64,000 nt of DNA, from NCBI RefSeq assembly GCF_964355755.1, contig NC_092671.1, positions 18,352,001 to 18,416,000 of the forward strand, written 5' to 3'. The translations under genes and the position numbers were made by a program. Numbering within the stretch: the first letter of the stretch is position 1; every line of letters starts with the position of its first letter. Below the pieces are notes generated by a model. That model saw only the letters and a list, made by a program, of their open reading frames with translations, ran no database searches and had not been told where the DNA came from. Origin of the DNA: Antedon mediterranea. Lineage: Eukaryota > Animalia > Echinodermata. Of this stretch, positions 1 through 62,169 are shown one piece after another.

Positions 1-562
1 TAGCTTAGTTTCAAGGTATTTTTGTTAAATATTTTTCTGAGCTTGTTGCCGGCAGGAAAACAATCTTCTACTATAGCTAAAAACTTGTGGCCGATGTTGG
101 TTGCTACGTTTTTGCTGAATGGTGGGTTAAACCAAATTATGTTTCTGGTGCGTGATTTTTTGGGCTTCTGCTGTTCAGCATTGAACTCAAGTTGATGATT
201 GTATCCACTTTCTTTGAGGGCTTCCTGGTATAGGGGTGCAGATGCATGAAATGTATCTTTGTCTGATGAGATGCCAGAAAGGCGTCTATTTATAGCAAGT
301 GGGATGTTTCGGATAATAGATGGAGGATGGTTGCTGTCATGGTGCACGTAGGTTGGTTTGTTATTAGGCTTAGTGAAAGGTTGGAAGATCCCTGTCCTTA
401 GGTCGAACGTTACATCCAAATAATTGACTATTTTCTTGTTAGCTTCAATTGTTAGCTTGAGGTTGTTCTCCTGGAAAATTTTACAAATATCTTTCTTGAT
501 TAGCTCAATCGTTTTGGCTGATTCGCGAAACGCGGCTAGGCCATCGTCGCGGTATAGACCAA
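1..562 (-). mobile_element. Inverted, 5'-truncated second copy of the Penelope-like element (continues off window)
   Basis: 1-562 is the reverse complement of about 1024-1584 with no differences noticed; joined head-to-head to the + copy at about 561-562. Confidence 0.92.
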
Positions 563-2123
563 CCCGACATGTAGATTAATCAACCCATCGAAATCAGAAA
601 TCGGCATCGTAAGTAAACAAATCCTTGAAAGAATAAATAAGAAAATAATAGCGTCTACAGGATTAAATCAATGGAAGAACACTAATTCTGTTATCGAATG
701 GTATAAGAACATTCAAAACAAGGATAAGCACTCGTTTATTTGCTTCGACATAGTTGACTTCTACCCGTCAATAACCAGTGACCTACTTAAAAAAGCCCTT
801 GAATTCGCCTCCAAGTTTGAAGCAATCTCCGATGAAGAAACAAATATTATTATCCAAGCAAAAAAGTCACTCCTTTTCCATGATAACGCTACATGGTGCA
901 AAAAAGGAACTGAAAACCAACCTGTGTTTGACGTCACAATGGGAAGCTTTGATGGTGCTGAAACCTGTGAAATCGTAGGTACATATCTTTTGTCGCAACT
1001 GTCTAACAAATATGGCAACCAAATTGGTCTATACCGCGACGATGGCCTAGCCGCGTTTCGCGAATCAGCCAAAACGATTGAGCTAATCAAGAAAGATATT
1101 TGTAAAATTTTCCAGGAGAACAACCTCAAGCTAACAATTGAAGCTAACAAGAAAATAGTCAATTATTTGGATGTAACGTTCGACCTAAGGACAGGGATCT
1201 TCCAACCTTTCACTAAGCCTAATAACAAACCAACCTACGTGCACCATGACAGCAACCATCCTCCATCTATTATCCGAAACATCCCACTTGCTATAAATAG
1301 ACGCCTTTCTGGCATCTCATCAGACAAAGATACATTTCATGCATCTGCACCCCTATACCAGGAAGCCCTCAAAGAAAGTGGATACAATCATCAACTTGAG
1401 TTCAATGCTGAACAGCAGAAGCCCAAAAAATCACGCACCAGAAACATAATTTGGTTTAACCCACCATTCAGCAAAAACGTAGCAACCAACATCGGCCACA
1501 AGTTTTTAGCTATAGTAGAAGATTGTTTTCCTGCCGGCAACAAGCTCAGAAAAATATTTAACAAAAATACCTTGAAACTAAGCTATAGTTGCATGCCCAG
1601 CGTAGACAAAGTAATTAACGCACACAACAAATATGTGATAGCCAAAGAAAAGCCTACTGAAACCAACGCGAAAACAAGCGGATGTAACTGCCGCAATCCC
1701 AATGAATGCCCGCTCCCAGGTAACTGCCTAACAAAAGGTGTAGTTTACCAAGCTACAGTAAAGAGAGAAGATTCATCAAAAGAAGAAACATATGTCGGAC
1801 TAACTGAAAACCAGTTTAAAACTAGATACAGAAACCATACGTCTTCATTCCGGAACGAAAAATTAAGAAGTGCAACGGAACTCAGTAAATATATATGGAC
1901 ACTTAAAGACTCTAAAACAAATTACTCAATTAAATGGAAAATTATAAAGAAATGCAAACCTTACTCAAATATTAACAAAAGATGTAATTTATGTATATAT
2001 GAAAAGTATGTTATTATATGTCAACCAGAGCTATGCTCACTGAACCGTAAGAACGAGTTAGTCTCTACTTGTAGACATAGGAAAAAATTCTTACTAAATT
2101 GCAGATCCAAACAGTTTATCTAA
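561..2123 (+). CDS. Penelope-like RT-endonuclease ORF (N-terminally truncated; frame open from 561, upstream of the listed 924 start)
   Basis: Manual translation 561-923 ([15 protein letters not shown]...NQPV) is stop-free and in frame with ORF 924-2123. Confidence 0.85.
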
Positions 2124-2207
2124 AACAATAGGCTATTGTATACGACTTCCCGATGACTCACTTCTATTAAGCACTATGAGACAACTGTGTCACTTATGTT
2201 TTATATT

Positions 2208-2263
2208 TCACCTGAAGAGTGCAGCCAGCTACATGCTGGTCGTACGAAACAAATTTGTAGTGA
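2208..2263 (+). ncRNA. Type I hammerhead ribozyme in Penelope 3' UTR
   Basis: TCAC-CTGAAGA-(GTGC..GCCAGC TACAT GCTGGT..GTAC)-GAAA-CAAATTTG-TA-GTGA: full core, stems I-III, palindromic stem III, GUA cleavage triplet. Confidence 0.88.
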
Positions 2264-2303
2264 TTAAAACAATGAAGTAACCAAGTTTTCTGCTGTTATT
2301 TTA

Positions 2304-2364
<61 letters not shown>

Positions 2365-2472
2365 CATACTGTAAATTATAGAAACAGTGCTCATATTCGG
2401 AACATGATCTCATAATCGCGTCGAGCATAGCTCATTGGCGAAAGTTCCATATTTTTTAGTTGTATGAAAAAA

Positions 2473-2544
2473 TGTCTCTGGCTGGATTCGAACCTGCAAC
2501 CTCTCGCTTACAGGGCGAGTATCATACCACTAGACCACAGAGCC
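2473..2544 (-). tRNA. tRNA-like (pseudo) core, tRNA-Pro-like body with TGT anticodon
   Basis: 72-nt cloverleaf, A box TGGTCTAGTGG, B box GGTTCGAATCC, followed by T6; mismatches in acceptor and T stems, C at position 33. Confidence 0.65.
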
Positions 2545-2862
2545 ATGTTCGAATCCAGCCAGAGACATTTTTTCATACAACTAAAAAATATGGAAATTTC
2601 GCCAATGAGCTATGCTCGACGCGATTATGAGATCATGTTCCGAATATGAGCACTGTTTCTATAATTTACAGTATGATTTATATATAATTTACACAGTGCT
2701 ACGCAACATCATTGATTTACATATACACAATATTATTTAAAAAACCGTTGCGAATTAAAGTTGGAATTTATTCTGACTTGTTAAGCCTCCACTGATTGTG
2801 AGGGCGTTTGTTGTATGAGAGAATGTATCTGGTGGGTGAAAATCTGTGATAATACCATACAT

Positions 2863-2934
2863 GGCTCTGTGGTCTAGGGGTATGATACTCGCCCTGTAAG
2901 CGAGAAGTTGCAGGTTCGAATCCAGCCAGAGACA
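2863..2934 (+). tRNA. tRNA-like (pseudo) core, TGT anticodon
   Basis: Same 72-nt cloverleaf; anticodon arm CTCGC-CCTGTAA-GCGAG; T6 terminator directly after. Confidence 0.65.
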
Positions 2935-3229
2935 TTTTTTCATACAACTAAAAAATATGGAACTTTCGCCAATGAGCTATGCTCGACGCGATTATGAGAT
3001 CATGTTCCGAATATGAGCACTGTTTCTATAATTTACAGTATGATTTATATATAATTTACACAGTGCTACGCAACATCATTGATTTACATATACACAATAT
3101 TATTTAAAAAACCGTTGCGAATTAAAGTTGGAATTTATTCTGACTTGTTAAGCCTCCACTGATTGTGAGGGCGTTTGTTGTATGAGAGAATGTATCTGGT
3201 GGGTGAAAATCTGTGATAATACCATACAT

Positions 3230-3301
3230 GGCTCTGTGGTCTAGGGGTATGATACTCGCCCTGTAAGCGAGAAGTTGCAGGTTCGAATCCAGCCAGAGAC
3301 A
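3230..3301 (+). tRNA. tRNA-like (pseudo) core, TGT anticodon
   Basis: Copy 2 of the array core. Confidence 0.65.
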
Positions 3302-3596
3302 TTTTTTCATACAACTAAAAAATATGGAACTTTCGCCAATGAGCTATGCTCGACGCGATTATGAGATCATGTTCCGAATATGAGCACTGTTTCTATAATT
3401 TACAGTATGATTTATATATAATTTACACAGTGCTACGCAACATCATTGATTTACATATACACAATATTATTTAAAAAACCGTTGCGAATTAAAGTTGGAA
3501 TTTATTCTGACTTGTTAAGCCTCCACTGATTGCGAGGGCGTTTGTTGTATGAGAGAATGTATCTGGTGGGTGAAAATCTGTGATAATACCATACAT

Positions 3597-3668
3597 GGCT
3601 CTGTGGTCTAGTGGTATGATACTCGCCCTGTAAGCGAGAGGTTGCAGGTTCGAATCCAGCCAGAGACA
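3597..3668 (+). tRNA. tRNA-like (pseudo) core, TGT anticodon
   Basis: Copy 3 of the array core. Confidence 0.65.
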
Positions 3669-3963
3669 TTTTTTCATACAACTAAAAAATATGGAACTTT
3701 CGCCAATGAGCTATGCTCGACGCGATTATGAGATCATGTTCCGAATATGAGCACTGTTTCTATAATTTACAGTATGATTTATATATAATTTACACAGTGC
3801 TACGCAACATCATTGATTTACATATACACAATATTATTTAAAAAACCGTTGCGAATTAAAGTTGGAATTTATTCTGACTTGTTAAGCCTCCACTGATTGT
3901 GAGGGCGTTTGTTGTATGAGAGAATGTATCTGGTGGGTGAAAATCTGTGATAATACCATACAT

Positions 3964-4035
3964 GGCTCTGTGGTCTAGTGGTATGATACTTGCCCTGTAA
4001 GCGAGAGGTTGCAGGTTCGAATCCAGCCAGAGACA
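3964..4035 (+). tRNA. tRNA-like (pseudo) core, TGT anticodon
   Basis: Copy 4 of the array core. Confidence 0.65.
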
Positions 4036-4182
4036 TTTTTTCATACAACTAACAAATATGGAACTTTCGCCAATGAGCTATGCTCGACGCGATTATGAGA
4101 TCATGTTCCGAATATGAGCACTGTTTCTATAATTTACAGTATGATTTATATATAATTTACACAGTGCTACGCAACATCATTG

Positions 4183-4240
<58 letters not shown>

Positions 4241-4302
4241 AAATCAGGCAAAGAACATATATATCATAATATTATATATAATAATATACAATGCCAACAT
4301 AC

Positions 4303-4483: not shown

Positions 4484-7400
4484 CTGTATAAATCAATCAA
4501 TATTTTTCCAAAATGGTGGCGTCACCAATAAATCAAATGCTTGTGTAAGTGAAGCCAATACAAAACAGAAACAAGTAAAAAAAAACCATATATATATATA
4601 TAAATCCAGAGACACACACAAAAAGTGAAAAGTTAAATCAAAACGATAAAGTAAAACAACCAGAAAAGTTAGCAGAGTTTCGGGCAACACTAGCCCTTCA
4701 ATAACTTGTATGTATGATAAGGAAATAACTGGAAGCTCAAATTCATCAGTAGAAGAGTTATGTATACATTTTTCAAATAATGAATAATAGAATATTTCAC
4801 GAGTTGAAAAATTAGTATATTTAACGAGGCGAAGCAGAGTTAAGTAGAGCACTCAATCTTTCATAAAATAAGATATTCATTTCATTCATATCGTCTTAAC
4901 ATAAGTAACATAAAATTATATTATACAATAATAAAAAAAACATTAACTTTTCAAAGTATGAATAATTACCTAATCAAATTACAGGAATATTATCAGGTGT
5001 GTTATAAAAATATATGAATTGTTTATGCTTTATATGCAGGCTCTCTGTGCACTGTACATAAACTGAAGGAAAGAGGAAACTGTCAAGTCTTCAGTTGGGT
5101 CTTAAAAAGGTTAATTAAATGTATCACATTTTTATACATTTCGAATGTTACAATAAAGATTACAATAATTACTGAATATATATAAAACAGAAGTGTATCA
5201 AGATAAAATGTTCTTTTGTAATATACCAAAATATAATATCATACCGCAAACTTGTCATTATTGATATCGGATCCCTCGACTAGATTGTTAAAATCACATT
5301 GTCCGCCGTTTACGCAGCCACACAGATACACTTCCATTGTGATGCTGACGCTTTGTGCGCCATCACTGACTTCAATCGTGATGTTTACATTATCAACAGT
5401 AGTTGGTGTCCAGGTAAACAATCCAGCTGGTTAAACAACAACAAATAGATTATAAATTTAAAATAAAAAGTGTTGATCCCTCAAAACATTAACAAATAAA
5501 TATGTATAAAATCAAACATTAAATAGGATATTTTGAAGTTTTGATCAAGTTATTCACTTACTTCATTTCATTTCTTTATTCAAATTTAAAAAAAAATAAC
5601 ATTATAAAACAGTACAGGAATGAATTCAGGGTAGCGCAAAAAAGTAACCAATGGTCAACTTATTTCCATTGTGGCCTTACGCAAAAAAAAAAAATCTGTT
5701 ACAATAGACAAAATTCCATCAAAAACCTGTTGTCTGGTTCTTTAAATTATGATTTGTCAGGTAAATAATTCGTAAATTATTATATTTCAAAAGTTAGAAA
5801 GCCATCAAATTAAGCTTAAGTTTTTAAGCATGCGGCACCAATTTCACTGATAATATACAACCTACATTCTAGTATAAAAAGGGCTTTAGATATAAAAGCA
5901 GATGATATTATTACATATTATAGATAGAAGTATATATAAGCATAATTATATACAAGTATATACAGTATAAGTATATAAGTATATACAAGTATATATAAGT
6001 ATATAAAAGTATATTTAAGAAACTATTATATATATATATATATATAAATCCAAAGGCAAATTACTGAAAAAATGACAATGCTGTGGGTATCAGTGGCTGG
6101 ATCTCAATAGAGATACAACATAAAAGCGAAAAGCTAAATCAAAACGAGAAGTAAAACAGCCAGAAAAGTTATATATATATATATATTACTTGAGTTATCA
6201 ATCTGAATTTCAGGGTATTCCATTTGTGTTGAGTACGTCAAAATATCATCCTTTTCATCACTTGCCGAAACCTGTAGTCGCACCGTTCGGTTTAATAATA
6301 CATACAGCTTGGTATTGTTCTGTAAAACTGAATAACTGCTCATGTCGTCGACAGAATTTAATACTGGTGGTATATTTTCTGAATAAAATAAAATCATACA
6401 TAATCATCATCATACTGTACATTTTCACCAATATCACTTTTATTCATCATCATCATAAAAAATATATGTATTAATCAACATTATTTTGACTATTTAAATA
6501 TTACATAAGGTAAGTTTGTTTATATACATGTAATGGTAAAGATATAAACATTTAAATTCAAGTTTAGAAATGACTTCACATAAATAATAGTAAAAACGTA
6601 CATACATAGTAAATAAATTTATTATTTGTTCTTATTTATTATTCTTAAATTTTTAAAGTTTAAGATTGTTTGATTTGAGAAAGTAGTTGAACGTCATGAC
6701 GATTTTATCATGTTTTATTGTTATTACAAGCTTTAAAAAATATAATTTATATGGTAAAATATTCTAAATGTTTGAAACTTTGAAAACAAAAAGTCACCCA
6801 AAACAGGAAAAAATATATATATTATACCTAATGTGGTTTGATCCTGTAGATTGGTTTCTTCAGTATTTCTAGTGCTCATACCAATTGCAAGATTTTGCGT
6901 TGCTAAGGCATCAAACAAACATTCCTTATTGCCCTCACACGTGTCTTCTGCTTGTTGCAGAAAGGCAGGGTCTGCGTTAGATTGTAAAACATCTAAAAAC
7001 ACTGGTTGAAAATCAGGATCATTGAAATCTGCAAAACTTTGTCCATCCGGATAAACAAATGCGGATTCGTCTTCTGTTATATTCCCTAGGAAAACATTCA
7101 CATTTATTAACTTTAAATTAATGATGTATTGACAACACAAACATGAACAATAAACGTTGTAGTATTTATAAAATCATTAACTTTAAATAAATGGTGGTTT
7201 CGTCTCGGTATTAGTCTCAAGATCATTAATATTTTGAACCATGCTTCTCAGCACAGTCAATATTTGTATATTATATTGAGGCAATATAAAGTAAAAGAAA
7301 GACAACAAAAACGTTGTTGTTAATCACAGGTTATTAATGTACAGTAAACTTACAAGTTATGGCGTAATCAAATATCTCTGACTCTGTCAAATTTCTGTTG

Positions 7401-19400: not shown

Positions 19401-22400
19401 ACAGTGGTATTAACTGTACATACAAAAAAAACCAGAATATGATATTTAAACAAGTTCCTTCAAAGAATCACGTTGAAATTAAAAACTAGTTCGGTAGTTA
19501 AATGGCCTTGAAGTTGAATGGTTCGGTAGCAGATTGGTTTAGTAGCACATGGCTCAGTTGTTTAGGTTTGTGATGGCTTGTTAGTAAATAATTAGAATCT
19601 TCCCTCATCGACAGTGTTTGTTGATGGTTCTGAAATGAGCATGACTTAGTACTTTGGAGTAAAATGGCTCTGCTATTGGTTCAGTTACAATACAGCATAG
19701 TAATAAAACATTAAGTAGTTTAGTAGTATTCACAGGTACTGTGGTTAACACTTCAAAAATAATATTTCAAATATTTTTTTTAACTCAAATGAATTATGAT
19801 ATCTCTTAAAACAAATTACTGAAAGAAAAAATAGCCTGGAGGTATACAATAATTTTATAAAAAGTAATTTTATACCGTCATGTACCAAAAGGTTACAAGT
19901 AAAACAACAAATTGAATAAATATTGTCAATAAATCGATTACCTGACTCAGTAGTAGAATGCTCAGTAGTTTAACAGCTCTGTAGTGGATGGCTATGTAGT
20001 TGACAGCTCGATTGTAGATTTTAGAAGTTATATAATTATTATTAAATGAAAACATAGAGCAAATTATGTCTAGTTTACAAATTTAAGAAAACTCAATTGC
20101 ATGATTATAGTTAAGAAGTCGATTACCTGAATCAGTAGTAGTTGATGGTTCAGCTGTAGCTGGTTCAGCTGTAGCTGGTACAGTTGTAGCTGGTACAGTT
20201 GTAGCTGGTACAGTTGTAGCTGGTACAGTAGTAGCTGGCTCAGTTGCAGCTGGTTCAGTTGCAGCTGGTTCAGTTGCAGCTGGTTCAGTTGCAGCTGGTT
20301 CAGTTGCAGCTGGTTCAGTTGTAGCTGGTACAGTTATAGCTGGTACAGTTATAGCTGGTACAGTTGTAGCTGGTTCAATTGTAGCTGGTACAGTTGTGGC
20401 TGGTTCAGTTGTGGCTGGTTCAGTTGTAGCTGGTACAGTTGTAGCTGGTTCAGTTGTAGCTGATTCATTCGTAGAAGGTTCAGTAGTAGATGGTTCGGTA
20501 GTAGATGGCTCTGTTGTCGACGGTTCTGTTGTTGAAGGCTCAGTAGTCAAGGGCTCTGTCGTTGATGGCTCTGTGGTTGATGGTTCAGTAGTCGATGGTC
20601 CAGTAGTAGATCGTTCGGTAGTCAATGGTTCAGTACTAGACGGCTCAGTAGTTGAGGGTTCAGTAGTCGATGGCTCTGTAGTAGACGGCTCTGTTGTTGA
20701 TGGCTCTGTGGTTGATGTTTCAGTAGTAGATGTTTCAGTAGTGGATGGCTCAGTAGTAGATGGCTCTGTTGTCGACGGTTCTGTGGTTGAAGGCTCAGTA
20801 GTCGAGGGCTCTGTCGTCGATGACTCTGTGGTTGATGGTTCAGTAGTCGATGGTCCAGTAGTAGATCGTTCGGTAGTTGATGGCTCAGTAGTTGATGCCT
20901 CAGTAGTAGATGCCTCAGTAGTAGATGTTTCAGTAGTTGAGGGTTCAGTAGTTGAGGGCTCTGCTGTTGATGGTTCAGTAGTAGATGGTTCAGTAGTTGA
21001 CGGTTCAGTAGTCGATGGCTCTGTAGAAGACGGCTCTGTTGTTGAAGGTTCAGTAGTCGAGGGCTCTGTCGTTGATGGCTCTGTGGTTGATGGTTCAGTA
21101 GACAATGGTTCAGTAGTAGACGGCTCAGTAGTAGACGGCTCTGTTGTTGATGGCTCTGTGGTTGATGGTTCAGTAGTAGATGTTTCAGTAGTTGATGGCT
21201 CAGTAGTAGATGGCTCTGTTGTCGACGGTTCTGTGGTTGAAGGCTCAATAGTCGAGGGTTTTGTCGTCGATGACTCTGTGGTTGATGGTTCAGTAGTCGA
21301 TGGTTCAGTAGTAGATCGTTCGGTAGTTGATGGCTCAGTAGTTGATGGCTCAGTAGTTGATGGCTCAGTAGTTGATGGCTCAGTAGTTGATGGCTCAGTA
21401 GTTGATGCCTCAGTAGTAGATGTTTCAGTAGTTGAGGGTTCAGTAGTTGAGGGCTCTGCTGTTGATGGTTCAGTAGTAGATGGTTGAGTAGTTGACGGTT
21501 CAGTAGTCGATGGCTCTGTAGTAGACGGCTCTGTTGTTGATTGCTCTGTGGTTGATGGCTCAGTAGTTGAGAGCTCTGTCGTAGAAGGTTCAGTAGTAGA
21601 TGGTTCAGTAGTTGAAAGCTCAGTTGTTGAGGGCTCTGTAGTAGATAGCTCTGTTGTCGAAGGTTCTGTTGTTGAAGGCTCAGTAGTCGAGGGCTCTGTC
21701 GTCGATGGCTCTGTGGTTGATGGTTCAGTAGTCAATGGTTCAGTAGTAGGCGGCTCAGTAGTTGAGGGTTCAGTAGTCGATGGCTCTGTAGTAGACGGCT
21801 CTGTTGTTGGCTCTGTGGTTGATGGTTCATTAGTTGAGGGCTCTGATGTTGATGGTTCAGTAGTAGATGGTTCAGTAGTAGATGGTTCAGTAGTTGACGG
21901 TTCAGTAGTCGATTGCTCTGTAGTAGACGGCTCTGTTGTTGATGGCTCAGTAGTTGAGGGCTCTGTTGTAGATGGTTCAGTAGTAGATGGTTCAGTAGTT
22001 GATGACTCGGTAGATGGAAGCTCAGTAGTAGATGTTTTAGTTGTTGATGGCTTTGTGGTTGATGGTTCAGTAGTCGACGGTTCTGTGGTTGAAACCTCAG
22101 TAGTCGAGGGCTCTATCGTCACTGGCTCTGTGGTTGATGGTTCAGTAGTCAATGGTTCAGTAGTAGAAGGCTCAGTAGTTGATAGCTCTGTTGTTGAGGG
22201 CTTTGTTGTTGATGGTTCAGTAGTAGGGGGTTGTATAGTTGATCGTTCAGTAGTCGATGGCTCTGTTTTCGATGTCTCTGTGGTTGATGGATCAGTAGTT
22301 GAGGTCTCTGTAGTTGATGGTTCAGTAGTCGATGGCTCTGTAGTAGACGGCTCTGTCGTAGACGGTTCTGTTGTCGATTTATCAGTAGTTGGGGGCTCTG

Positions 22401-25400
22401 TCGTTGATGGTACAGTAGTTGATGGCTCGCTAGATGAAGGCTGAGTAGTAGATGTTTCAGTTGTTGAGGGCTTTGTCGTTGATTGTTCAGTAGTTGAGGG
22501 TTCAGTAGTCGATGGCTCTGTAGTAGACGGCTCTGTAGTAGACGGTTCTGTTGTCGATTTATCAGTAGTTGGGGGCTCTGTCGTTGATGGTACAGTAGTT
22601 GATGGCTCGCTAGATGAAGGCTGAGTAGTAGATGTTTCAGTTGTTGAGGGCTTTGTCGTTGATGGTTCAGTAGTTGATGGTTCAGTAGTCGATGGCTCTG
22701 TAGTAGACGGCTCTGTTGTTGATGACTCTGTTGTTGATGACTCTGTGGTTGATGACTCTGTAGTTGATAACTCTGTAGTTGATGGCCCTGTAGTTGATGG
22801 CTCTGTAGTTGATGGCTCTGTAGTTGATGGCTCTGTAGTTGAGGGCTCTGTTGTTGATGGTTTAGTAGTAGATCCTTCAGTAGTTGATGGCTCAGTAGTT
22901 GATGGCTCAGTAGTAGATTGTTCAGTAGTTGAGGGCTCTGTCGTTGATGGTTCTGTAGTAGATGGTTCTGTAGTAGATGGTTCTGTAGTTGATGATTCAG
23001 TAGTCAAGGGCTCTGTAGTAGACGGCTCTGTAGTTGATGGCTCAGTAGTTGAGGGTTCAGTAGTAGATGGTTCAGTAGTCGATGGCTCTGTAGTAGACGG
23101 CTCTGTAGTAGACGGCTCTGTAGTAGACGGCTCTGTAGTAGACGGCTCTGTTGTTGATGACTCTGTGGTTGATGGCTCAGTAGTAGACGGCTCTGTTGTT
23201 GATGGTTTAGTAGTAGATCCTTCAGTAGTTGTGGGCTCAGTAGTTGATGGCTCTGTAGTTGAGGGCTCTGTAGTTGAGGGCTCTGTAGTTGAGGGCTCTG
23301 TTGTTGATGGTTTAGTAGTAGATCCTTCAGTAGTTGAGGGCTCAGTAGTTGAGGGTTCAGTAGTTGAGGGCTCAGTAGTTGAGGGTTCAGTAGTTGAGGG
23401 CTCAGTAGTTGAGGGCTCAGTAGTTGAGGGCTCAGTAGTTGAGGGCTCAGTAGTTGAGGGCTCTGTAGTTGAGGGCTCTGTAGTAGATCCTTCAGTAGTT
23501 GATGGCTCAGTAGTTGATGGCTCAGTAGTAGATTGTTCAGTAGTTGAGGGCTCTGTCGTTGATGGTTCTGTAGTAGATGGTTCAGTAGTTGAGGGCTCAG
23601 TAGTTGAGGGTTCAGTAGTTGAGGGCTCTGTAGTTGATGGTTCAGTAGTTGAGGGCTCTGTCGTTGATGGTTCAGTAGTAGATGGTTCAGTAGTCGATGG
23701 CTCTGTAGTAGACGGCTCTGTTGTTGATGACTCTGTGGTTGATGGCTCAGTAGTTGAGGGCTCTGTTGTTGATGGTTTAGTAGTAGATCCTTCAGTAGTT
23801 GATGGCTCAGTAGTTGATGGCTCAGTAGTAGATTGTTCAGTAGTCGATTGTTCAGTAGTCGATGGCTCTGTAGTAGACAGCTCTGTGGTTGATGGCTCAG
23901 TAGTTGAGGGCTCAGTAGTTGATGGCTCAGTAGTTGATGGCTCAGTAGTTGATGGCTCAGTAGTTGATGGCTCTGTTGTTGATGGTTCAGTAGTTGATGG
24001 TTCAGTAGTTGATGGTTCAGTAGTTGAGGGCTCTGTAGTTGATGGCTCTGTTGTTGATGGTTTAGTAGTAGATCCTTCAGTAGTTGATGGCTCAGTAGTA
24101 GATTGTTCAGTAGTTGAGGGCTCTGTCGTTGATGGTTCTGTAGTAGATGGTTCAGTAGTTGAGTGCTCTGTTGTTGATGGTTCAGTAGTTGAGGGCTCTG
24201 TAGTTGATGGCTTTGTTGTTGAGGGCTCTGTTGTTGATAATTCAGTAGTTGATGGTTCAGTAGTTGATGGTTCAGTAGTTGAGGGCTCTGTAGTTGATGG
24301 CTCTGTTGTTGATGGTTTAGTAGTAGATCCTTCAGTAGTTGATGGCTCAGTAGTAGATTGTTCAGTAGTTGAGGGCTCTGTCGTTGATGGTTCTGTAGTA
24401 GATGGTTCAGTAGTTGAGTGCTCTGTTGTTGATGGTTCAGTAGTTGAGGGCTCTGTAGTTGATGGCTTTGTTGTTGAGGGCTCTGTTGTTGATAATTCAG
24501 TAGTTGATGGCTCAATAGTTGAGGGTTCAGTAGTTGAGGGTTCAGTAGTTGAGGGCTCAGTAGTTGAGGGCTCAGTAGTTGAGGGCTCAGTAGTTGAGGG
24601 CTCAGTAGTTGAGGGCTCAGTAGTTGAGGGCTCAGTAGTTGAGGGCTCAGTAGTTGATTGTTCAGTAGTTGATGGTTCAGTAGTTGAGGGCTCTGTAGTT
24701 GATGGCTTTGTTGTTGAGGGCTCTGTTGTTGATAATTCAGTAGTTGAGGGCTCAGTAGTTGAGGGCTCAGTAGTTGAGGGCTCAGTAGTTGAGGGCTCAG
24801 TAGTTGAGGGCTCAGTAGTTGAGGGCTCAGTTGTTGAGGACTCAGTTGTTGAGGGCTCAGTTGTTGAGGGCTCTGTAGTTGATGGCTCTGTAGTTGATGG
24901 CTCTGTAGTCGATGGCTCTGTAGTTGATGGTTTAGTAGTAGATCCTTCAGTAGTTGATGGCTCAGTAGTTGATGGCTCAGTAGTAGATTGTTCAGTAGTT
25001 GAGGGCTCTGTCGTTGATGGTTCTGTAGTAGATGGTTCAGTAGTTGAGGATTCAGTAGTCGGTGGCTCTGTAGTAGACGGCTCTGTAGTTGATGGCTCAG
25101 TAGTTGATGGCTCAGTAGTTGATGGTTCAGTAGTTGAGGGCTCTGTTGTTGATGGTTCAGTAGTTGAGGGCTCTGTCGTTGATGGTTCAGTAGTAGATGG
25201 TTCAGTAGTCGATGGCTCTGTAGTAGACGGCTCTGTTGTTGATGACTCTGTGGTTGATGGCTCAGTAGTTGAGGGCTCTGTTGTTGATGGTTTAGTAGTA
25301 GATCCTTCAGTAGTTGATGGCTCAGTAGTTGATGGCTCAGTAGTAGATTGTTCAGTAGTCGATGGCTCTGTAGTAGACGGCTCTGTTGTTGATGGCTCAG

Positions 25401-28400
25401 TAGTTGAGGGCTCTGTAGTTGAGGGCTCTGTAGTTGATGGCTCAGTAGTCGATGGCTCAGTAGTCGATGGCTCTGTTGTTGATGGTTCAGTAGTTGATGG
25501 TTCAGTAGTTGAGGGCTCTGTAGTTGATGGCTCTGTTGTTGATGGTTTAGTAGTAGATCCTTCAGTAGTTGATGGCTCAGTAGTAGATTGTTCAGCAGTT
25601 GAGGGCTTTGTCATTGATGGTTCTGTAGTAAATGGTTCAGTAGATGAGGATTCAGTAGTCGATGGCTCAGTAGTTGAGAGCTCTGTAGTTGAGGGCTCTG
25701 TAGTTGATGGCTCAGTAGTTGAGGGCTCAGTAGTTGAGTGCTCTGTTGTTGATGGTTCAGTAGTTGATGGTTCAGTAGTTGAGGGCTCTGTTGTTGAGGG
25801 CTCTGTTGTTGATGGCTCAGTAGTTGATGGCTCAGTAGTTGAGGGCTCAGTAGTTGAGGGCTCAGTAGTTGAGGGCTCGGTAGTTGAGGGCTCAGTAGTT
25901 GAGGGCTCAGTAGTTGAGGACTCAGTTGTTGAGGGCTCTGTAGTTGATGGCTCTGTAGTTGATGGCTCTGTAGTTGATGGCTCTGTAGTTGATGGCTCTG
26001 TAGTAGATCCTTCAGTAGTTGATGGCTCAGTAGTTGATGGCTCAGTAGTAGATTGTTCAGTAGTTGAGGGCTCTGTCGTTGATGGTTCTGTAGTAGATAG
26101 TTCAGTAGTTGAGGATTCAGTAGTCGGTGGCTCTGTAGTAGACGGCTCTGTAGTTGATGGCTCAGTAGTTGATGGCTCAGTAGTTGAGGGTTCAGTAGTT
26201 GAGGGCTCTGTAGTTGATGGTTCAGTAGTAGATGGTTCAGTAGTCGATGGCTCTGTAGTAGACGGCTCTGTTGTTGATGACTCTGTGGTTGATGGCTCAG
26301 TAGTTGAGGGCTCTGTTGTTGATGGTTTAGTAGTAGATCCTTCAGTAGTTGATGGCTCAGTAGTTGATGGCTCATTAGTTGAGTGCTCTGTTGTTGATGG
26401 TTCAGTAGTTGATGGTTCAGTAGTTGAGGGCTCTGTTGTTGATGGTTTAGTAGTAGATCCTTCAGTAGTTGATGGCTCAGTAGTAGATTGTTCAGTAGTT
26501 GAGGGCTCTGTCGTTGATGGTTCTGTAGTAGATGGTTCAGTAGATGAGGATTTAGTAGTCGGTGTCTCTGTAGTAGACGGCTCTGTAGTTGAGGGTTCAG
26601 TAGTTGAGGGCTCTGTAGTCGATGGTTCAGTAGTTGAGGGCTCTGTCGTTGATGGTTCAGTAGTAGAAGGTTCAGTAGTAGATGGTTCAGTAGTCGATGG
26701 CGCTGTAGTAGACGGCTCTGTTGTTGATGACTCTGTGGTCGATGGCTCAGTAGTTGAGGGCTCTGTTGTTGATGATTTAGTAGTAGATCCTTCAGTAGTT
26801 GATGGCTCAGTAGTCGATGGCTCAGTAGTCGATTGTTCAGTAGTTGATTGTTCAGTAGTTGAGGATTCAGTAGTTGAGGATTCAGTAGTCGGTGGCTCTG
26901 TAGTAGACGGCTCTGTAGTTGATGGCTCAGTAGTTGAGGGTTCAGTAGTTGAGAGCTCTGTAGTTGATGGTTCAGTAGTTGAGGGCTCTGTCGTTGATGG
27001 TTCAGTAGTAGATGGTTCAGTAGTCGATGGCTCTGTAGTAGACGGCTCTGTTGTTGATGACTCTGTGGTTGATGGCTCAGTAGTTGAGGATTCAGTAGTC
27101 AAGGGCTCTGTAGTAGACGGCTCTGTAGTTGATGGCTCAGTAGTTGAGGGCTCTGTAGTTGATGGTTCAGTAGTTGAGGGCTCTGTCGTCGATGGCTCTG
27201 TAGTAGACGGCTCTGTTGTTGACGGCTCTGTCGTCGATGGCTCTGTAGTAGACGGCTCTGTTGTTGACGGCTCTGTAGTTGACGGCTCAGTAGTTGACGG
27301 CTCAGTAGTTGACGGCTCAGTAGTTGACGGCTCAGTAGTTGATGGCTCTGTAGTTGATGGCTCAGTAGTTGATGGTTCAGTAGTAGATGGCTCTGTCGTT
27401 GATGGTTCAGTAGTAGATGGTTCAGTAGTAGATGGTTCAGTAGTCGATGGCTCTGTAGTAGACGGCTCTGTTGTTGATGACTCTGTGGTTGATGGCTCAG
27501 TAGTTGATGGCTCAGTAGTTGATGGCTCAGTAGTTGATGGCTCAGTAGTAGATGGTTCAGTAGTTGAGAGATGTGTCGTCGATTGTTCAGTAGTAGATGG
27601 TTTAGTAGTTGAGGGTTCAGTAGTCGATCGCTCTGTAGTAGACGGCTCTGTTGTTGATAGCTTTGTGGTTAATGGCTCAGTAGTTGAGGGCTCTGTAGTT
27701 GATGGCTCTGTAGTTGATGGCTCAGTAGTTGAGGGCTCTGTAGTTGATGGTTCAGTAGTTGATGGCTCTGTAGTTGATGGCTCAGTAGTTGAGGGTTCAG
27801 TTGTTGAGGGCTCTGTAGTTGATGGCTCTGTAGTTGATGGCTCCGTTGTTGATAGTTCAGTGGTAGATCTTTCTGTAGTTGATGGCTCAGTAGTTGATGG
27901 CTCAGTAGTAGATTGTTCAGTAGTTGAGGGCTCTGTCGTTGATGGTTCTGTAGTAGATGGTTCAGTTGTTGAGGGTTCAGTAGTCGATGGCTCTGTAGTA
28001 GACGGCTCATTTGTTGATAGCTCTGTGGTTGATTGCTCAGTAGTTGATTGCTCAGTAGTTGAGGGGTCTGTTGTTGATAGCTTTGTGGTTAATGGCTCAG
28101 TAGTTGAGGGCTCTGTAGTTGATGGCTCTGTAGTTGATGGCTCTGTAGTTGATGGCTCAGTAGTTGAGGGCTCTGTAGTTGATGGTTCAGTAGTTGAGGG
28201 CTCAGTAGTTGATTGCTCAGTAGTTGAGGGGTCTGTTGTTGATAGCTTTATGGTTAATGGCTCAGTAGTTGAGGGCTCTGTAGTTGATGGCTCTGTAGTT
28301 GATGGCTCAGTAGTTGAGGGCTCTGTAGTTGATTGTTCAGTAGTTAAGGGCTCTGTAGTTGATGGCTCAGTAGTTGAGGGCTCAGTAGTTGAGGGCTCCG

Positions 28401-31400
28401 TTGTTGATGGTTCAGTGGTAGATCTTTCCGTAGTTGATGGCTCAGTAGTTGATGGCTCAGTAGTAGACTGTTCAGTAGTTGAGGGCTCTGTCGTTGATGG
28501 TTCTGTAGTAGATGGTTCTGTAGTAGATGGTTCTGTAGTAGATGGTTCTGTAGTAGATGGTTCAGTTGTTGAGGGTTCAGTAGTCGATGGCTCTGTAGTA
28601 GACGGCTCATTTGTTGATAGCTCTGTGGTTGATAGCTCTGTGGTTGATTGCTCAGTAGTTGATTGCTCAGTAGTTGAGGGCTCTGTAGTTGAGGGCTCAG
28701 TAGTTGAGGGCTCTGTTGTTGATGGTTCAGTAGTTGATTGTTCAGTAGTTGAAGGCTCAGTAGTAGATTGTTCAGTAGTTGAAGGCTCAGTAGTTGATGA
28801 CTCAGTAGTTGAAGGCTCAGTAGTTGATGACTCAGTAGTTGATGGCTCAGTAGTTGATGGCTCAGTAGTTGATGGCTCAGTAGTTGATGGCTCAGTAGTT
28901 GATGGCTCTGTTGTTGATGGCTCTGTTGTTGATGGCTCTGTTGTTGATGGCTCTGTTGTTGATGGCTCTGTTGTTGATGGTTCAGTAGTTGATGGCTCTG
29001 TAGTTGATGGCTCTGTAGTATATGGCTCTGTAGTAGATGGTTCAGTAGTTGAGGGTTCTGTAGTAGATGGTTCTGGAGGAACAATCGCTGAACCTGGATT
29101 TGAAATTTTAAGATAAAATGAATTAATAATTATGATATCTCTTTAGTATAGAGTTAAAAGTGAATCAGTTGGTTTAAAAATCATTAGTTTGATGTTTTGA
29201 ATTGTAGTAGTTGTGTCAAGAGATGTAACACAAACAATTAGGATTGGTACTAATAACTAATTAAATTTTCAACAGCGACAGCAACAATAATGATTATAAA
29301 TGGATATTTAATTCTTTGTTCCTTCCACAAAATGGTCTTTTGGACAGGTTGAGACCATGCATTATTGGAAGTAGAGATTTATATACAATTGAATTATGCA
29401 CAACTATTATCAATTTATAAATAAAAGATCACAAAATGTGCCTGAATTTAAACTTTCGTACTACTCTATACATACTAATACCAGTCTTGTTTATAATCAA
29501 TTCATATTTGAAAAAATGCGAGTTGGCATGCCGTATTTTTCATCTTTGGCATGCCTGGCATACCCACGTTTACAATATAGATGATAATCCCCGTGGTAAT
29601 TATAGCGACCTCTATGTCTGATGTACTGTATGGTATTTTTGTGCATCCCAATGTGTAACAGTTACAATGCAAAAAGAATTAGCCGTGTGAGACTTGACAT
29701 GAATAAAACCATTTTTGAGTGGTCACTTAGGGCTACAGTCTCGGGCAACTTACAGGATAAAGTTGCTGTCATTGCTGTTTTAACATTATATACACATGCG
29801 GACAATATCCAACAACTTTTATCCGTGTTGCTTTTCACATGATTAAATCCATTTTTTACCCCTCCTATTTGGTGTCCCCAGGGAAAATGTACAGGTCTGA
29901 TATGACCCGACAGCAATATTGATTATTGAATCTTAGTTATATATCTACATAATCAGCCCATCAAACCTTTTGTGGCTTTTCACATGAACAAACTTTCTGG
30001 GCGCCCTGTCTATTATGAAAAAAACAAAAGTGGGTCAAACCTAACCAAAAAAAAAAAGAAACAACATTAACTATTATCTTGAGCCTAACTATTAGGGGAG
30101 GAGGGGGAGATACACTATTTGAAAATAGGCGAAATATATTGATTTAATCCCAGATTGAATTAGAAGAAACAAATAATTTTTTGAACCAGGGAAGGGTACT
30201 CTTCATTAAAGGATCGTTCACATTTGTTCCGGTAAAAAAAATCGAACGTCAATTTTTCGTTTTCACGAAACTCCACACGACAATGTGATTACATTTTTTT
30301 TTTTTTTTTTTTTTTTTTAAATGCGCCTTGAGCACTCTTGAGTGGTATGTGCGCTTTAAAAATCCTGTTATTATTATTATTATTACACGCGTGAAAACGA
30401 AACATTGACGTTCGATTTGCCGGCGCCGGACCCGTGCCGGAACAGGTGTGAAAGACCCTTGATGATAGAACCGAAAATAAAACGTTGTATATTAGAAATT
30501 TATGATTATCATCAAACGAAAAAAGGAGAACTAATTATTCACTCCCTAAAAAAATTGAATATGTCATTTTAATGTCGCATAATAATTATTCACTTCAACC
30601 AAAAACTGGATCGAAAAAAAAATTATTTTCCTGAAAGAAATGTAATTTAAATCAAACAATATCTAAATTGTCTGTCAGACAATGGTTTTTGGTTGAAATT
30701 AACATATTCTTTTGGTTTTTTTTTTATAAGTGGAATTATAATAATTTTTTCTACAGACGTGAATAACTTGATTAAAACAAAATGGGCTATTCAAGGTCTG
30801 ATTTTCAGGGTTATTGGGACAATAGACCTACATCTTCAAGGAAATAAATAGGGTATACTGTATTAACTTGTGAACGCGAAAGGAAAGCATGGTGGATTGA
30901 AAGAGACCTTTTGAAGATTATTGTCCTCAAAAACATGAAAACTGAAGATTAATAAAATCAGACTTTGAATAGGTAATTTTTCATTAAGGATAAGGGTTGA
31001 TTTCCCGCATGATCGTAAATAAAACGGTACTGGGTTTCGTCTAATAGCGTTCTTGCTCTCAAATAGTCATGCATACATAGAAGTACTGATGAAAATAGGA
31101 TATACGATGTTTGATTATAATTATAGATACTAGAGGGTTCGCTCGCTTCGCTCGCGCACCCTCTACTGGGTGTACCCGAATGGTTCTCGAAAACATGACC
31201 AACGCCTCTGGAAATTGAAGCCCGGGTGACACCTATGCATATGACTGATGAGTGATGCATGTTTATTTTGTGATGTTTTGCACCTAAATTTTATTAAAAG
31301 ATTAATAAATAGAATAAATAATTAGTTCAATTAGCCTCCTACAGTAACATTGAATCGCACCTAAATTTGATAAAATGATTAATAAATAGCATAAATAATT

Positions 31401-41133: not shown

Positions 41134-41206
41134 GTTCTCGGGTGGGACTCGAACCCACGACCTCCAGATCACTAGCCAGGCGTTCATACCTCTAGACCAC
41201 GGAGCT
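41134..41206 (-). tRNA. Degenerate tRNA-like core (AGT anticodon) of a solo element
   Basis: A box TGGTCTAGAGG, perfect T arm GTGGG-TTCGAGT-CCCAC, weak acceptor stem, T6 shortly downstream. Confidence 0.55.
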
Positions 41207-54120: not shown

Positions 54121-55082
54121 TATATTCTCCAGTCCACAGAACGTCTCAGGACTGTTTTTCCGGAACCACCCATTATTGCATTTCGTAGACCTCCCAACCT
54201 TCGTGATATATTAGTCAGATCCAAATTTAAGAGTGAAATTAACTCTCATGACAGCCAAAATTTGGGCAGTCACCTTTGCGGCAAATCTTGCAAAACTTGT
54301 TCATTGGTTGATTCTACTGAAAAATTTGAGAGTAACCAAACTGGCGGCATTTTTCGGATAAGACAATCAATTAATTGTCTAACCAAAAACGTCATTTATC
54401 TCATATACTGTAATATTTGTGGCAAACAGTACGTCGGAGAAACAAAAAACACTCTCCGTATGAGAATGACACAACATAGATCAGCTATCAAAACATTAAA
54501 GCTTGATCAACTTGTATCCGAACATTTTAATTCAGCTGGTCACTCGATTGCAAATTTCAGAGTTATTGCAATAGACCACGATGTCAAATGGAGCGACAAA
54601 ACTCGCAAAGACAAAGAAAACCACTGGGAATTACTACTTAAAACCACAAAACCTTTTGGACTTAACATTAGGAACATACTCCCAGATCGGTAAAATTATT
54701 CCATTGACTACCAACATTTAAGTTTCAATATTAACCACCATTTAAGCTGTTTTTTAGTCTCATTCCAAAATTGTTTATATCTCTACCAAGCTACCTTCTT
54801 TGTTTTCCACTCTTATTCAGACTCCACCCTGGCTCCCTTTGTTATATTTCTTTTATTCATGTCCACCCAGGCAGCACTTGCCAGCTTTATACTATGGCGT
54901 TATCCAAATTCCTTCACTTGCACTGATGAAGGGCTAGTGTTGCCCGAAAGCTCTGCTAACTTTTCTGGCTGTTTACTTTATCGTTTTGATTTAGCTTTTC
55001 GCTTTTTATTTTTGTATCTCCATTGAGATCCAGCCACTGATACCCACAGCATTGTCATTTTTCTCAGTAATTTGCCTTTGGA
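54121..55082 (+). mobile_element. Neptune-like Penelope element, 3' fragment (GIY-YIG)
   Basis: PIIAFRRPPNLRDILV, CGKSCKTC linker, NVIYLIYCNICGKQYVGET, VSEHF, PFGLN; hammerhead in 3' UTR; ends in TA. Confidence 0.88.
54920..54956 (+). ncRNA. Minimal type I hammerhead ribozyme
   Basis: GCA-CTGATGA-A-GGGC TAGTGTT GCCC-GAAA-GC-TC-TGC; loop-less palindromic stem III as in Penelope minimal hammerheads. Confidence 0.8.
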
Positions 55083-57180
55083 TATATATATATATTTATA
55101 TATATACAGGTATATATATAAACACAGTAGGCAAAGAACATTAATTCTGAACCGCCCGGTGATATACTGAAATTTAATTAATTAATTTGAAACGATAAAG
55201 ATGAGGAAATCTGTGAGAATGAGAAAAAGTCGCCCCAACCGAGACCCGAACTCGGACCGCCTGCTTGATATGCAGTTGCCCTAACCATTAGACCACTGGT
55301 CTAACCACATGGTATTGTTCAAACTCGATTGTATAGCGACTCTTTAACACTCTCGGCGTGGTACGGCGGAACAGCAATAGTCCTCAGTTGTACACACGCG
55401 CAACAGAGATCAAATTGATACGCCCTCATCTTACAGTATTTTTATTCACGAGGCGGGATCTCCGAAGAGATACTTTTATATATATAACCACAGTAGGCAA
55501 AGAACATTAATTCTGAACCGCCGGTGATATACTGAAATTTAATTAATTAATTTGAAACGATAAAGATGAGGAAATCTGTGAGAATGAGAAAAAGTCGCCC
55601 CAACCGAGACTCGAACTCGGACCGCCTGCTTGATATGCAGTTGCTCTAACCATTAGACCACTGGGGCTTTCATGGTATTGTTCAATCTCGATTGTATAGC
55701 GACTCTTTAACACTCTCGGCGTGGTACGGCGGAACAGCACTAGTCCTCAGTTGTACACACGCGCAACAGAGATCAAATTGATACGCCCTCATCTTACAGT
55801 ATTTTTATTCACGAGGCGGGATCTCCGAAGAGATACTTTTATATATATAAACACAGTAGGCAAAGAACATTAATTCTGAACCGCCCGGTGATATATTGAA
55901 ATTTAATTAATTAATTTGAAACGATAAAGATGAGGAAATCTGTGAGAATGAGAAAAAGTCGCTCCAACCGAGACTCGAACTCGGACCGCCTGCTTGATAT
56001 GCAGTTGCCCTAACCATTAGACGACTGGGGCTTTCATGGTATTGTTCAAACTCGATTGTATAGCGACTCTTTAACACTCTCGGCGTGGTACGGCGGAACA
56101 GCACTAGACCTCAGTTGTACACACGCGCAACAGAGATCAAATTGATACGCCCTCATCTTACAGTATTTTTATTCACAAGGCGGGATCTCCGAAGAGATAC
56201 TTTTATATATATAAACACAGTAGGCAAAGAAAATTAATTCTGAACCACCCGGTGATATACTGAAATTTAATTAATTAATTTGAAACGATAAAGATGAGGA
56301 AATTTGTGAGAATGAGAAAAAGTCGCCCCAACCGAGACTCGAACTCGGACCGCCTGCTTGATATGCAGTTGCCCTAACCATTAGACCACTGGGGCTTTCA
56401 TGGTATTGTTCAAACTCGATTGTATAGCGACTCTTTAACACTCTCGGCGTGGTACGGCGGAACAGCACTAGACCTCAGTTGTACACACGCGCAACAGAGA
56501 TCAAATTGATACGCCCTCATCTTACAGTATTTTTATTCACAAGGCGGGATCTCCGAAGAGATACTTTTATATATATAAACACAGTAGGCAAAGAAAATTA
56601 ATTCTGAACCACCCGGTGATATACTGAAATTTAATTAATTAATTTGAAACGATAAAGATGAGGAAATTTGTGAGAATGAGAAAAAGTCGCCCCAACCGAG
56701 ACTCGAACTCGGACCGCCTGCTTGATATGCAGTTGCCCTAACCATTAGACCACTGGGGCTTTCATGGTATTGTTCAAACTCGATTGTATAGCGACTCTTT
56801 AACACTCTCGGCGTGGTACGACGGAACAGCACTAGTCCTCAGTTGTACACACGCGCAACAGAGATCAAATTGATACGCCCTCATCTTACAGTATTTTTAT
56901 TCACGAGGCGGGATCTCCGAAGAGATACTTTTATATATATAACCACAGTAGGCAAAGAACATTAATTCTGAACCGCCGGTGATATACTGAAATTTAATTA
57001 ATTAATTTGAAACGATAAAGATGAGGAAATCTGTGAGAATGAGAAAAAGTCGCCCCAACCGAGACTCGAACTCGGACCGCCTGCTAATCTAAATACAATC
57101 GAGTTTGAACAATACCATGAAAGCCCTAGTGGTCTAATTGTTAGGGCAACTGTCTCGGTTGGGGCGACTTTTTCTCATTC

Positions 57181-61671: not shown

Positions 61672-62006
61672 ATATCAAGCAGGCGGTCCGAGTTCGAGTC
61701 TCGGTTGGGGCGACTTTTTCTCATTCTCACAGATTTCCTCATCTTTATCGTTTCAAATTAATTAATTAAATTTCAGTGTATCACCGGGCGGTTCAGAATT
61801 AATGTTCTTTGCCTACTGTGTTTATATATATATATAAGTATCTCTTCGGAGATCCCGCCTCGTGAATAAAAATACTGTAAGATGAGGGCGTATCAATTTG
61901 ATCTCTGTTGCGCGTGTGTACAACTGAGGACTAGTGCTGTTCCGCCGTACCACGCCGAGAGTGTTAAAGAGTCGCTATACAATCGAGTTTGAACAATACC
62001 ATGAAA

Positions 62007-62078
62007 GCCCCAGTGGTCTAATGGTTAGGGCAACTGCATATCAAGCAGGCAGTCCGAGTTCGAGTCTCGGTTGGGGCG
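62007..62078 (+). tRNA. tRNA-like core (tRNA-Arg-like 5' half, ATC in anticodon position); representative of array 2
   Basis: GCCCCAG/TTGGGGC acceptor, perfect T arm CCGAG-TTCGAGT-CTCGG, then ACTTTTT; atypical anticodon loop ATATCAA. Confidence 0.65.
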
Positions 62079-62120
62079 ACTTTTTCTCATTCTCACAGAT
62101 TTCCTCATCTTTATCGTTTC

Positions 62121-62169
<49 letters not shown>

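Follow-up and report, generated by a model that had tools for sequence, protein, structure and literature searches.

Within the window (the whole stretch of 64,000 nucleotides that was analyzed), we found two unrelated families of noncoding tandem elements of the same design, in which a tRNA-like gene is preceded by a G-U-biased antisense copy of its own 3' half. The duplex between this leader and the tRNA very probably has a function at the RNA level. Our best reading of the design, a tentative one drawn from modeled folds, is that host TSEN and RtcB would excise and circularize one unit, in place of the hammerhead used by retrozymes. The arrays might then belong to a class of animal retroelements in which host tRNA splicing replaces a self-cleaving ribozyme and each unit would be a self-regenerating tRNA intron, a proposal that we make with reserve. 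The DNA in the window is animal-like, with introns, a mucin-like repeat exon, and LINE fragments. Coordinates of the features are given in Table 1.

Table 1. Coordinates of the tandem arrays, their parts, and the adjoining Penelope-like element in the window
Feature	Position	Strand	Description
Penelope-like ORF	558..2123	+	5'-truncated; RT and C-terminal endonuclease region; CxCX5C linker, CxxC, and CxH motifs (by eye)
Type I hammerhead-like motif of Penelope-like element	2207..2264	+	Core words at 2212-2219 and 2246-2250, by eye
(TA)n target, left of array 1	2314..2361		Doubles as tail of the adjoining Penelope-like element
Inverted arm, array 1	2362..2548	-	Precedes the forward arm
Forward arm, array 1	2547..4185	+	4.5 head-to-tail 367-bp units, 99% alike
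Distal leader	2810..2849	+	G-U-biased antisense copy of tRNA 3' half, T-run, and first trailer bases
ATACCAT	2852..2858	+	Pairs with D loop in copies reading GTGGTAT
tRNA-like gene	2863..2934	+	Pro-like D and anticodon stems, rewritten loop, called Thr-TGT; acceptor and T-stem mismatches
Anticodon arm	2888..2904	+	Only tRNA arm kept in the rod; loop 2893-2899
Duplex 3' arm	2908..2948	+	T arm, acceptor 3' strand, T6 (2935-2940), trailer
(TA)n target, right of array 1	4186..4237		
Family 2 array	55111..57085	-	5.4 units of 364 bp, anatomy as in family 1
Family 2 inverted arm	57093..57180	+	Internal deletion
Third insertion, family 2	61672..62126	+	1.25 units; 5' end at N32, 3' end in (TA)n

As the original prediction had claimed, positions 2810-2849 pair with 2908-2948. 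Alignment of the leader with the reverse complement of the 3' arm gave six G-U-type differences (A>G or C>T on the tRNA-sense strand), one gap, and four true mismatches (one transition of the opposite type and three transversions), three of which lie opposite the T loop, again as claimed. Folding of linear and circular 367-mers on both strands against shuffles favored the tRNA-sense strand. The 2810-2948 segment folded at -57.9 kcal/mol and its reverse complement at -38.0. For the linear 367-mer, the values were -105.9 (z -4.42; 0 of 100 shuffles as good) versus -86.3 for the other strand (z -2.57; 3 of 100), and for the circular 367-mer, they were -98.8 (z -4.8) versus -80.3 on the opposite strand (z -2.7). 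As a null for the strand gap, we gave a perfect antisense leader the same number of random transitions and transversions and one deletion; the gap of -21.2 observed in the copy at 3544-3682 was reached in only 2 of 400 such trials. With DNA parameters, the gap was about 5 kcal/mol. The leader/3'-half duplexes of the two families had energies of -47.3 and -38.9, whereas tRNAs in the fetched loci (58 of 59 calls) reached -24.8 at best, with a median of -13.8.

The G-U bias had been taken as a sign of selection on RNA. The strand asymmetry, the recurrence in family 2, and majority alleles that strengthen the duplex support this reading, but a per-variant test does not. In family 1 alone, the 6:1 ratio of G-U-type to opposite-type differences was not significant (p=0.06); the two families pooled had 12 against 2 (p=0.006, with family-2 boundaries that we chose ourselves). 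Per variant, pairing in the family 2 duplex was kept in 8 of 11 cases (7 of 10 gives p=0.36), with about 59% expected for transitions, which is not significant. The majority alleles in other sequencing runs nevertheless strengthened the local fold in both families (-62.3 versus -59.2 and -63.7 versus -59.1), and the family 1 allele prevailing in two of four runs has lost the leader-duplex bulge, leaving a T-stem mismatch. RNA editing or deamination of a duplex produces A>G and C>T changes. A template-switch duplication could have made the hairpin, with the bias introduced without selection when its duplex RNA was edited or deaminated prior to reverse transcription. The types of change in the bias and the nonsignificant per-variant test agree with this scenario, which we still consider very unlikely: two families agree in their layout and in its limits (3' half, T-loop gap, D-loop helix), the duplex is strengthened by majority alleles in both, and an RNA duplex on the tRNA-sense strand is implied in any case.

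The claim that the rod formed by the leader excludes the cloverleaf was right for the acceptor, D, and T arms, which are removed, but not for the anticodon stem-loop, which is the only tRNA arm kept in the rods of both families. Likewise, the leader hides the tRNA in a circle, where the cloverleaf costs 27 and 17 kcal/mol, with the anticodon arm left exposed; in a dimer, it instead frees the outer tRNA halves to pair together. The proposed pairing of ATACCAT with the D loop forms in a copy reading GTGGTAT (3597-3668). It is absent from the minimum free energy (MFE) fold of the copy for which it was proposed because the D loop there reads GGGGTAT, with G at 2878; the next copy has the same loop through G at 3245.

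The body of the family-1 tRNA matches tRNA-Pro at the D and anticodon stems, with five of the seven loop bases different. Both families depart from the paired stems, pyrimidine 32, and U33 of functional tRNAs: the unusual loops have C33 in family 1 and A32 in family 2, and family 1 also has stem mismatches. As a background, we used the 36 distinct loops from 59 tRNA calls in the fetched loci, 34 of which have U33. Positions 32 and 35 are Watson-Crick partners in both families (C:G and A:U; about 0.04, given 7 of 36 background loops), and a palindromic loop like that of family 2 occurred in 1 of the 36 (about 0.01). The family-1 loop is one base away from a natural Thr-TGT loop, and judging from this sequence, its C32:G35 may be inherited from a loop of that type. 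Under the splicing model, C32:G35 would be the anticodon-intron pair of family 1, with a predicted cut between 2898 and 2899.

Families 1 and 2 have only short motifs in common. The antisense leader of family 2 has six G-U-type differences and one of the opposite type, and AATACCAT lies 4 nt before the tRNA, as at the family-1 ATACCAT site. The unit also has a T-run after the tRNA (T5) and an internal TATATA. As a circle, it folded with a z of -5.0, with a strand asymmetry of -104.7 versus -79.5. Bases A32, U33, A34, and U35 of its anticodon loop form a palindrome.

Both arrays are composed of noncoding tandem units (367 and 364 bp) that encode no protein, and their insertion pattern combines a (TA)n microsatellite target, head-to-tail copies, and an inverted 5' arm. 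The forward arm of array 1 runs from within the T arm to a TA-like site of the 367-bp unit. The inverted arm starts 4 nt before the tRNA, passes T6, and ends at the internal TATATA of the unit, and both outer ends of the array are TA-like sites within the unit. In family 2, the 5' end of the array arm is A38. Arrays of ordinary tRNA genes, or a satellite that recombination has spread, would account for the tRNA calls made in the arrays by both ARAGORN and Rfam and for variants common to adjacent units, but this insertion anatomy of dispersed short arrays, inverted arms, and (TA)n ends makes such an origin extremely unlikely, as do the lack of U33 in family 1, A32 in family 2, and the stem mismatches. 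Units 1 and 2 of array 1 share variants (2878/3245 and 2906/3273) that are absent in units 3 and 4 and in the inverted arm, which suggests duplication at the DNA level or a multimeric template rather than separate rounds of copying from a single circle.

According to the accessible part of PMC8557442, Penelope-like elements insert as partial tandems with an inverted 5' copy, and mobilization of the tandem elements by a Penelope-type machinery seems likely. Array 1 is nested in the TA tail of a Penelope-like element (1-2313), which we regard as a young insertion; it has an inverted arm of its own (1-562) that is 100% identical to 1024-1585. The motifs recognized by eye in its ORF agree with the description of the Hydra clade, which inserts in (TA)n, and on the basis of sequence, this ORF is a candidate for the type of helper used by the arrays. 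A Pfam scan of the ORF gave 0 families, and its hammerhead-like motif had no Rfam hit and a noncanonical MFE. We rejected an identification of this neighbor as Naiad: its endonuclease-like region is C-terminal, with CxCX5C, and is followed by the hammerhead-like motif, whereas Naiad has an N-terminal endonuclease and no hammerhead in the text available from PMC8557442. The end of a second hammerhead-bearing, TA-tailed element is present as four fragments (54861-55082, 6049-6171, 4608-4700, and 32370-32404), and array 2 is nested at 55082 in its TA tail. Within the window, the sequences of the units matched the 3' end of neither Penelope-like element, and searches for loci of a helper protein confirmed 0 of 5 and 0 of 47 candidates. 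Beyond the right (TA)n of array 1, positions 4228-4258 hold a 31-bp remnant of a family-2 3' end, so three different elements have entered one microsatellite.

The splicing route would begin with an RNA that covers two tRNA copies, either because Pol III reads through the T-run or because transcription starts at an outside promoter. In computed folds, the leader of unit n+1 would invade the 3' half of tRNA n, with the trailer as the toehold, and ATACCAT would capture the D loop of tRNA n+1; the 5' half of tRNA n and the 3' half of tRNA n+1 would then form a cloverleaf. From the geometry, the insert would be exactly one unit at the canonical 37/38 position, and N32 would pair with the third-last intron base, contributed by the next copy as its N35 (a C:G pair in family 1, A:U in family 2). 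TSEN would cut both bulges, and RtcB would join the ends of the freed unit, which the anticodon stem would keep together. Within the circle, the rod is computed to bury the acceptor, T, and D arms. A Hydra-type Penelope RT/endonuclease could finally prime at TA-like sites of the RNA and write multimers into (TA)n.

Under a constrained fold, the modeled dimers of both families had a 37/38 intron, an A-I pair, and a 3-nt 3' bulge, and the 32-35 palindrome of family 2 gave a full bulge-helix-bulge. The trans pre-tRNA was better than two separate cloverleaves by 22.8 and 15.6 kcal/mol; with a scrambled leader (20 scrambles each), the advantage was just 5.4 and 0.9 kcal/mol. The mature tRNA domain was best or near-best among the cloverleaf-containing states, with stem mismatches in family 1. 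However, the unconstrained dimers lay 16 and 6 kcal/mol below the proposed trans state, without a cloverleaf in family 1, and a state in which only tRNA n+1 is folded was about equal to the trans state (-119.3 versus -116.5 and -134.5 versus -135.3). The excised unit folded with both ends within the anticodon stem, and RtcB closes ends held in such a geometry in tricRNAs (accessible text of PMC4536317) and in retrozymes (likewise PMC7229834).

In the consulted portions of the TSEN literature, the cleavage determinants are the N32-N35 helix and the A-I pair (PMC10275265; see also PMC10485636 on these determinants), and the identity of the A-I pair is not strict (PMC8479045; 10.1101/497545). The available part of a fly reporter study describes less circle with unpaired middle positions, an A-U first pair, or a fully paired helix (10.1101/497545). 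Such yield-lowering features are present in both families, as two C.U mismatches in the 4-bp helix of family 1 and as an A-U pair and a fully paired helix in family 2. T-runs terminate transcription, and the splicing route needs read-through of T6 in family 1 and of T5 in family 2. Support for the route comes from two families, with modest and partly post hoc statistics. When we looked for a third family, viral contigs yielded 0, 3, and at least 120 (loose pattern) stretches, none of them confirmed, metagenomes yielded 98 stretches that were SINE heads and ordinary tRNAs, and prokaryote genomes yielded 0. Among the 221 fetched loci, none had a tandem period of at least 150 or a leader duplex like those of the two families.

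All or part of the stretch was carried by 19 of the 23 runs listed, across eight studies, with assembled contigs as the evidence and no run listed as RNA among the carriers. Run X1 may be the source, and run X4 is only guessed to be RNA. Runs X2, X5, and X14 carry little, which may be carry-over, and we therefore do not claim spread across species. The head-to-tail junction was present in contigs of all four runs examined for each family, and contigs in some of these runs continue into (TA)n at the same unit sites. Variation tended to spare the anticodon arm. In family 1, none of the eight tRNA variant positions listed fell there (four runs; p=0.10), and in family 2, the arm core had 0 of 14 variant positions (p=0.03; 40 of 103 rows). 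A diverged family-2 form has kept the loop and changed the flanking bases. The window contains five arm 5' ends, among them one at A38 (p 0.014-0.04 for one end at 38) and one at N32, although a single base of chance homology could account for the A38 end.

Heterogeneous 5' flanks of family 2 clustered mainly elsewhere, at the trailer start (62080-62081), with 7, 15, 15, and 1 contigs in four runs among the matches listed. This site is one to two bases past the discriminator, not position 38, and either an RNase Z site or an RT stall would fit it better than tRNA splicing does. The cluster leads to the main rival of the splicing route, which is close to the idea of the original prediction and which we consider rather unlikely. 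Pol III would start just before tRNA n, so that the RNA begins without a leader, and tRNA n would fold and be removed by RNase Z. The leader would hide the next tRNA, giving a monomer from the trailer start to the next U-run, and would hold the monomer ends together as a splint for ligation or for RT template jumping. Apart from the cluster, seen in all four runs, this account is favored by the start of the array 1 inverted arm at -4, a plausible Pol III start, and by the leader helix, which covers the tRNA end and trailer; the modeled monomer pairs both ends with the leader. It leaves unexplained the anticodon loops, which are exposed, conserved, and self-complementary, and the inverted arm includes an uncut tRNA with its trailer. 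The cluster itself may reflect stalling of the RT when it meets the first GC-rich helix, and no trailer-start cluster was seen among the family-1 matches listed.

A further alternative, unlikely in our judgment, is SINE-like: the tRNA would be an internal Pol III promoter only, the leader a generic mask or stabilizer, and the multimers the product of RT template jumps on read-through RNA, without host cleavage. The A and B box regions are indeed intact, and each family 1 unit has a single T-run. The accessible text of PMC8557442 has Penelope-like elements forming tandems unaided, and that of PMC7229834 describes retrozyme RNAs as generally highly self-paired. For a promoter, an anticodon arm is dispensable, but here it is among the least variable parts, and the terminator lies right behind the tRNA, unlike in a SINE.

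Compared with known systems, the element resembles a non-LTR retrozyme but lacks the defining hammerhead, and it is neither a typical SINE nor a working tRNA gene. In the available parts of the sources, metazoan non-LTR retrozymes are highly self-paired, noncoding tandem units of 170-400 nt, with a Penelope-like helper and closure by RtcB proposed (PMC7229834; 10.64898/2026.07.22.740005). The arrays are like them, as so described, in unit size (367 and 364 bp), self-pairing, and noncoding tandem form, whereas each retrozyme unit has a type I hammerhead where the arrays have a tRNA look-alike and an antisense leader. No CTGANGA hammerhead core was found on either strand of the two reference units; by eye, one family 2 allele has the word CTGAGGA, with the rest of the core missing. 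A hidden known ribozyme was likewise not found; the Rfam matches for 2100-4300 included no ribozyme up to E=5. The word "tRNA" has 0 occurrences in the accessible text of the 2026 preprint (10.64898/2026.07.22.740005). Hydra-clade Penelope-like elements, within the same limits of PMC8557442, share (TA)n targets, partial tandems, and an inverted 5' arm with the arrays, which differ in having no protein and no hammerhead. A tRNA-derived SINE has in common a tRNA head with A and B boxes but no terminator behind the head, whereas the arrays carry T6 or T5 directly after the tRNA and form permuted multimers.

TricRNAs, as far as the consulted text covers them, share TSEN cleavage at 37/38, RtcB closure of a structured intron, the A-I pair, and the 3-nt bulge, all of which are predictions on the side of the arrays (PMC4536317; 10.1101/497545). 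They come from single genes, whereas the "intron" of an array would be the whole repeat unit, with the tRNA regenerated at the junction and the circle serving as a template for retrotransposition. The nearest described objects, judging from the accessible parts of the publications, are tRNA-related tandems of amphibians: PolIII/TAN (about 360 nt, newt), OAX, and Rana/polIII have tandem units of comparable size, a tRNA-like part, and no SINE counterpart (PMC10702118; PMC12054243). A mechanism, an antisense leader, or a Penelope-type insertion is not described in these parts, and the comparison is by description only. In the literature outside subscription journals, Repbase, and the supplement of PMC8557442, we found no published description of a retroelement mechanism based on tRNA splicing.

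If the splicing model is true, the arrays would be a mobile element that relies on tRNA splicing to replicate and a new natural class of substrates for metazoan TSEN. They would also be a natural, self-regenerating counterpart of circular RNA production based on tricRNAs and could explain puzzling tRNA-related tandem repeats of amphibians and invertebrates. The model offers a sharp test of the role of the tRNA in ribozyme-free Penelope-type tandems, through the N32:N35 pairing and RNA ends at 37/38.

Elsewhere in the window, a lone, weak tRNA-like match on the minus strand (41137-41204; Rfam, 30.1 bits), by eye without a tandem or an antisense leader, is probably a SINE head. Also on the minus strand, an open frame of 3,019 codons (20083-29142) encodes a five-residue Ser/Thr/Glu/Pro repeat from about 573 copies of a 15-bp unit. 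This is the mucin-like exon, which we take to adjoin LDL-receptor-like and AMOP/NIDO-like exons.
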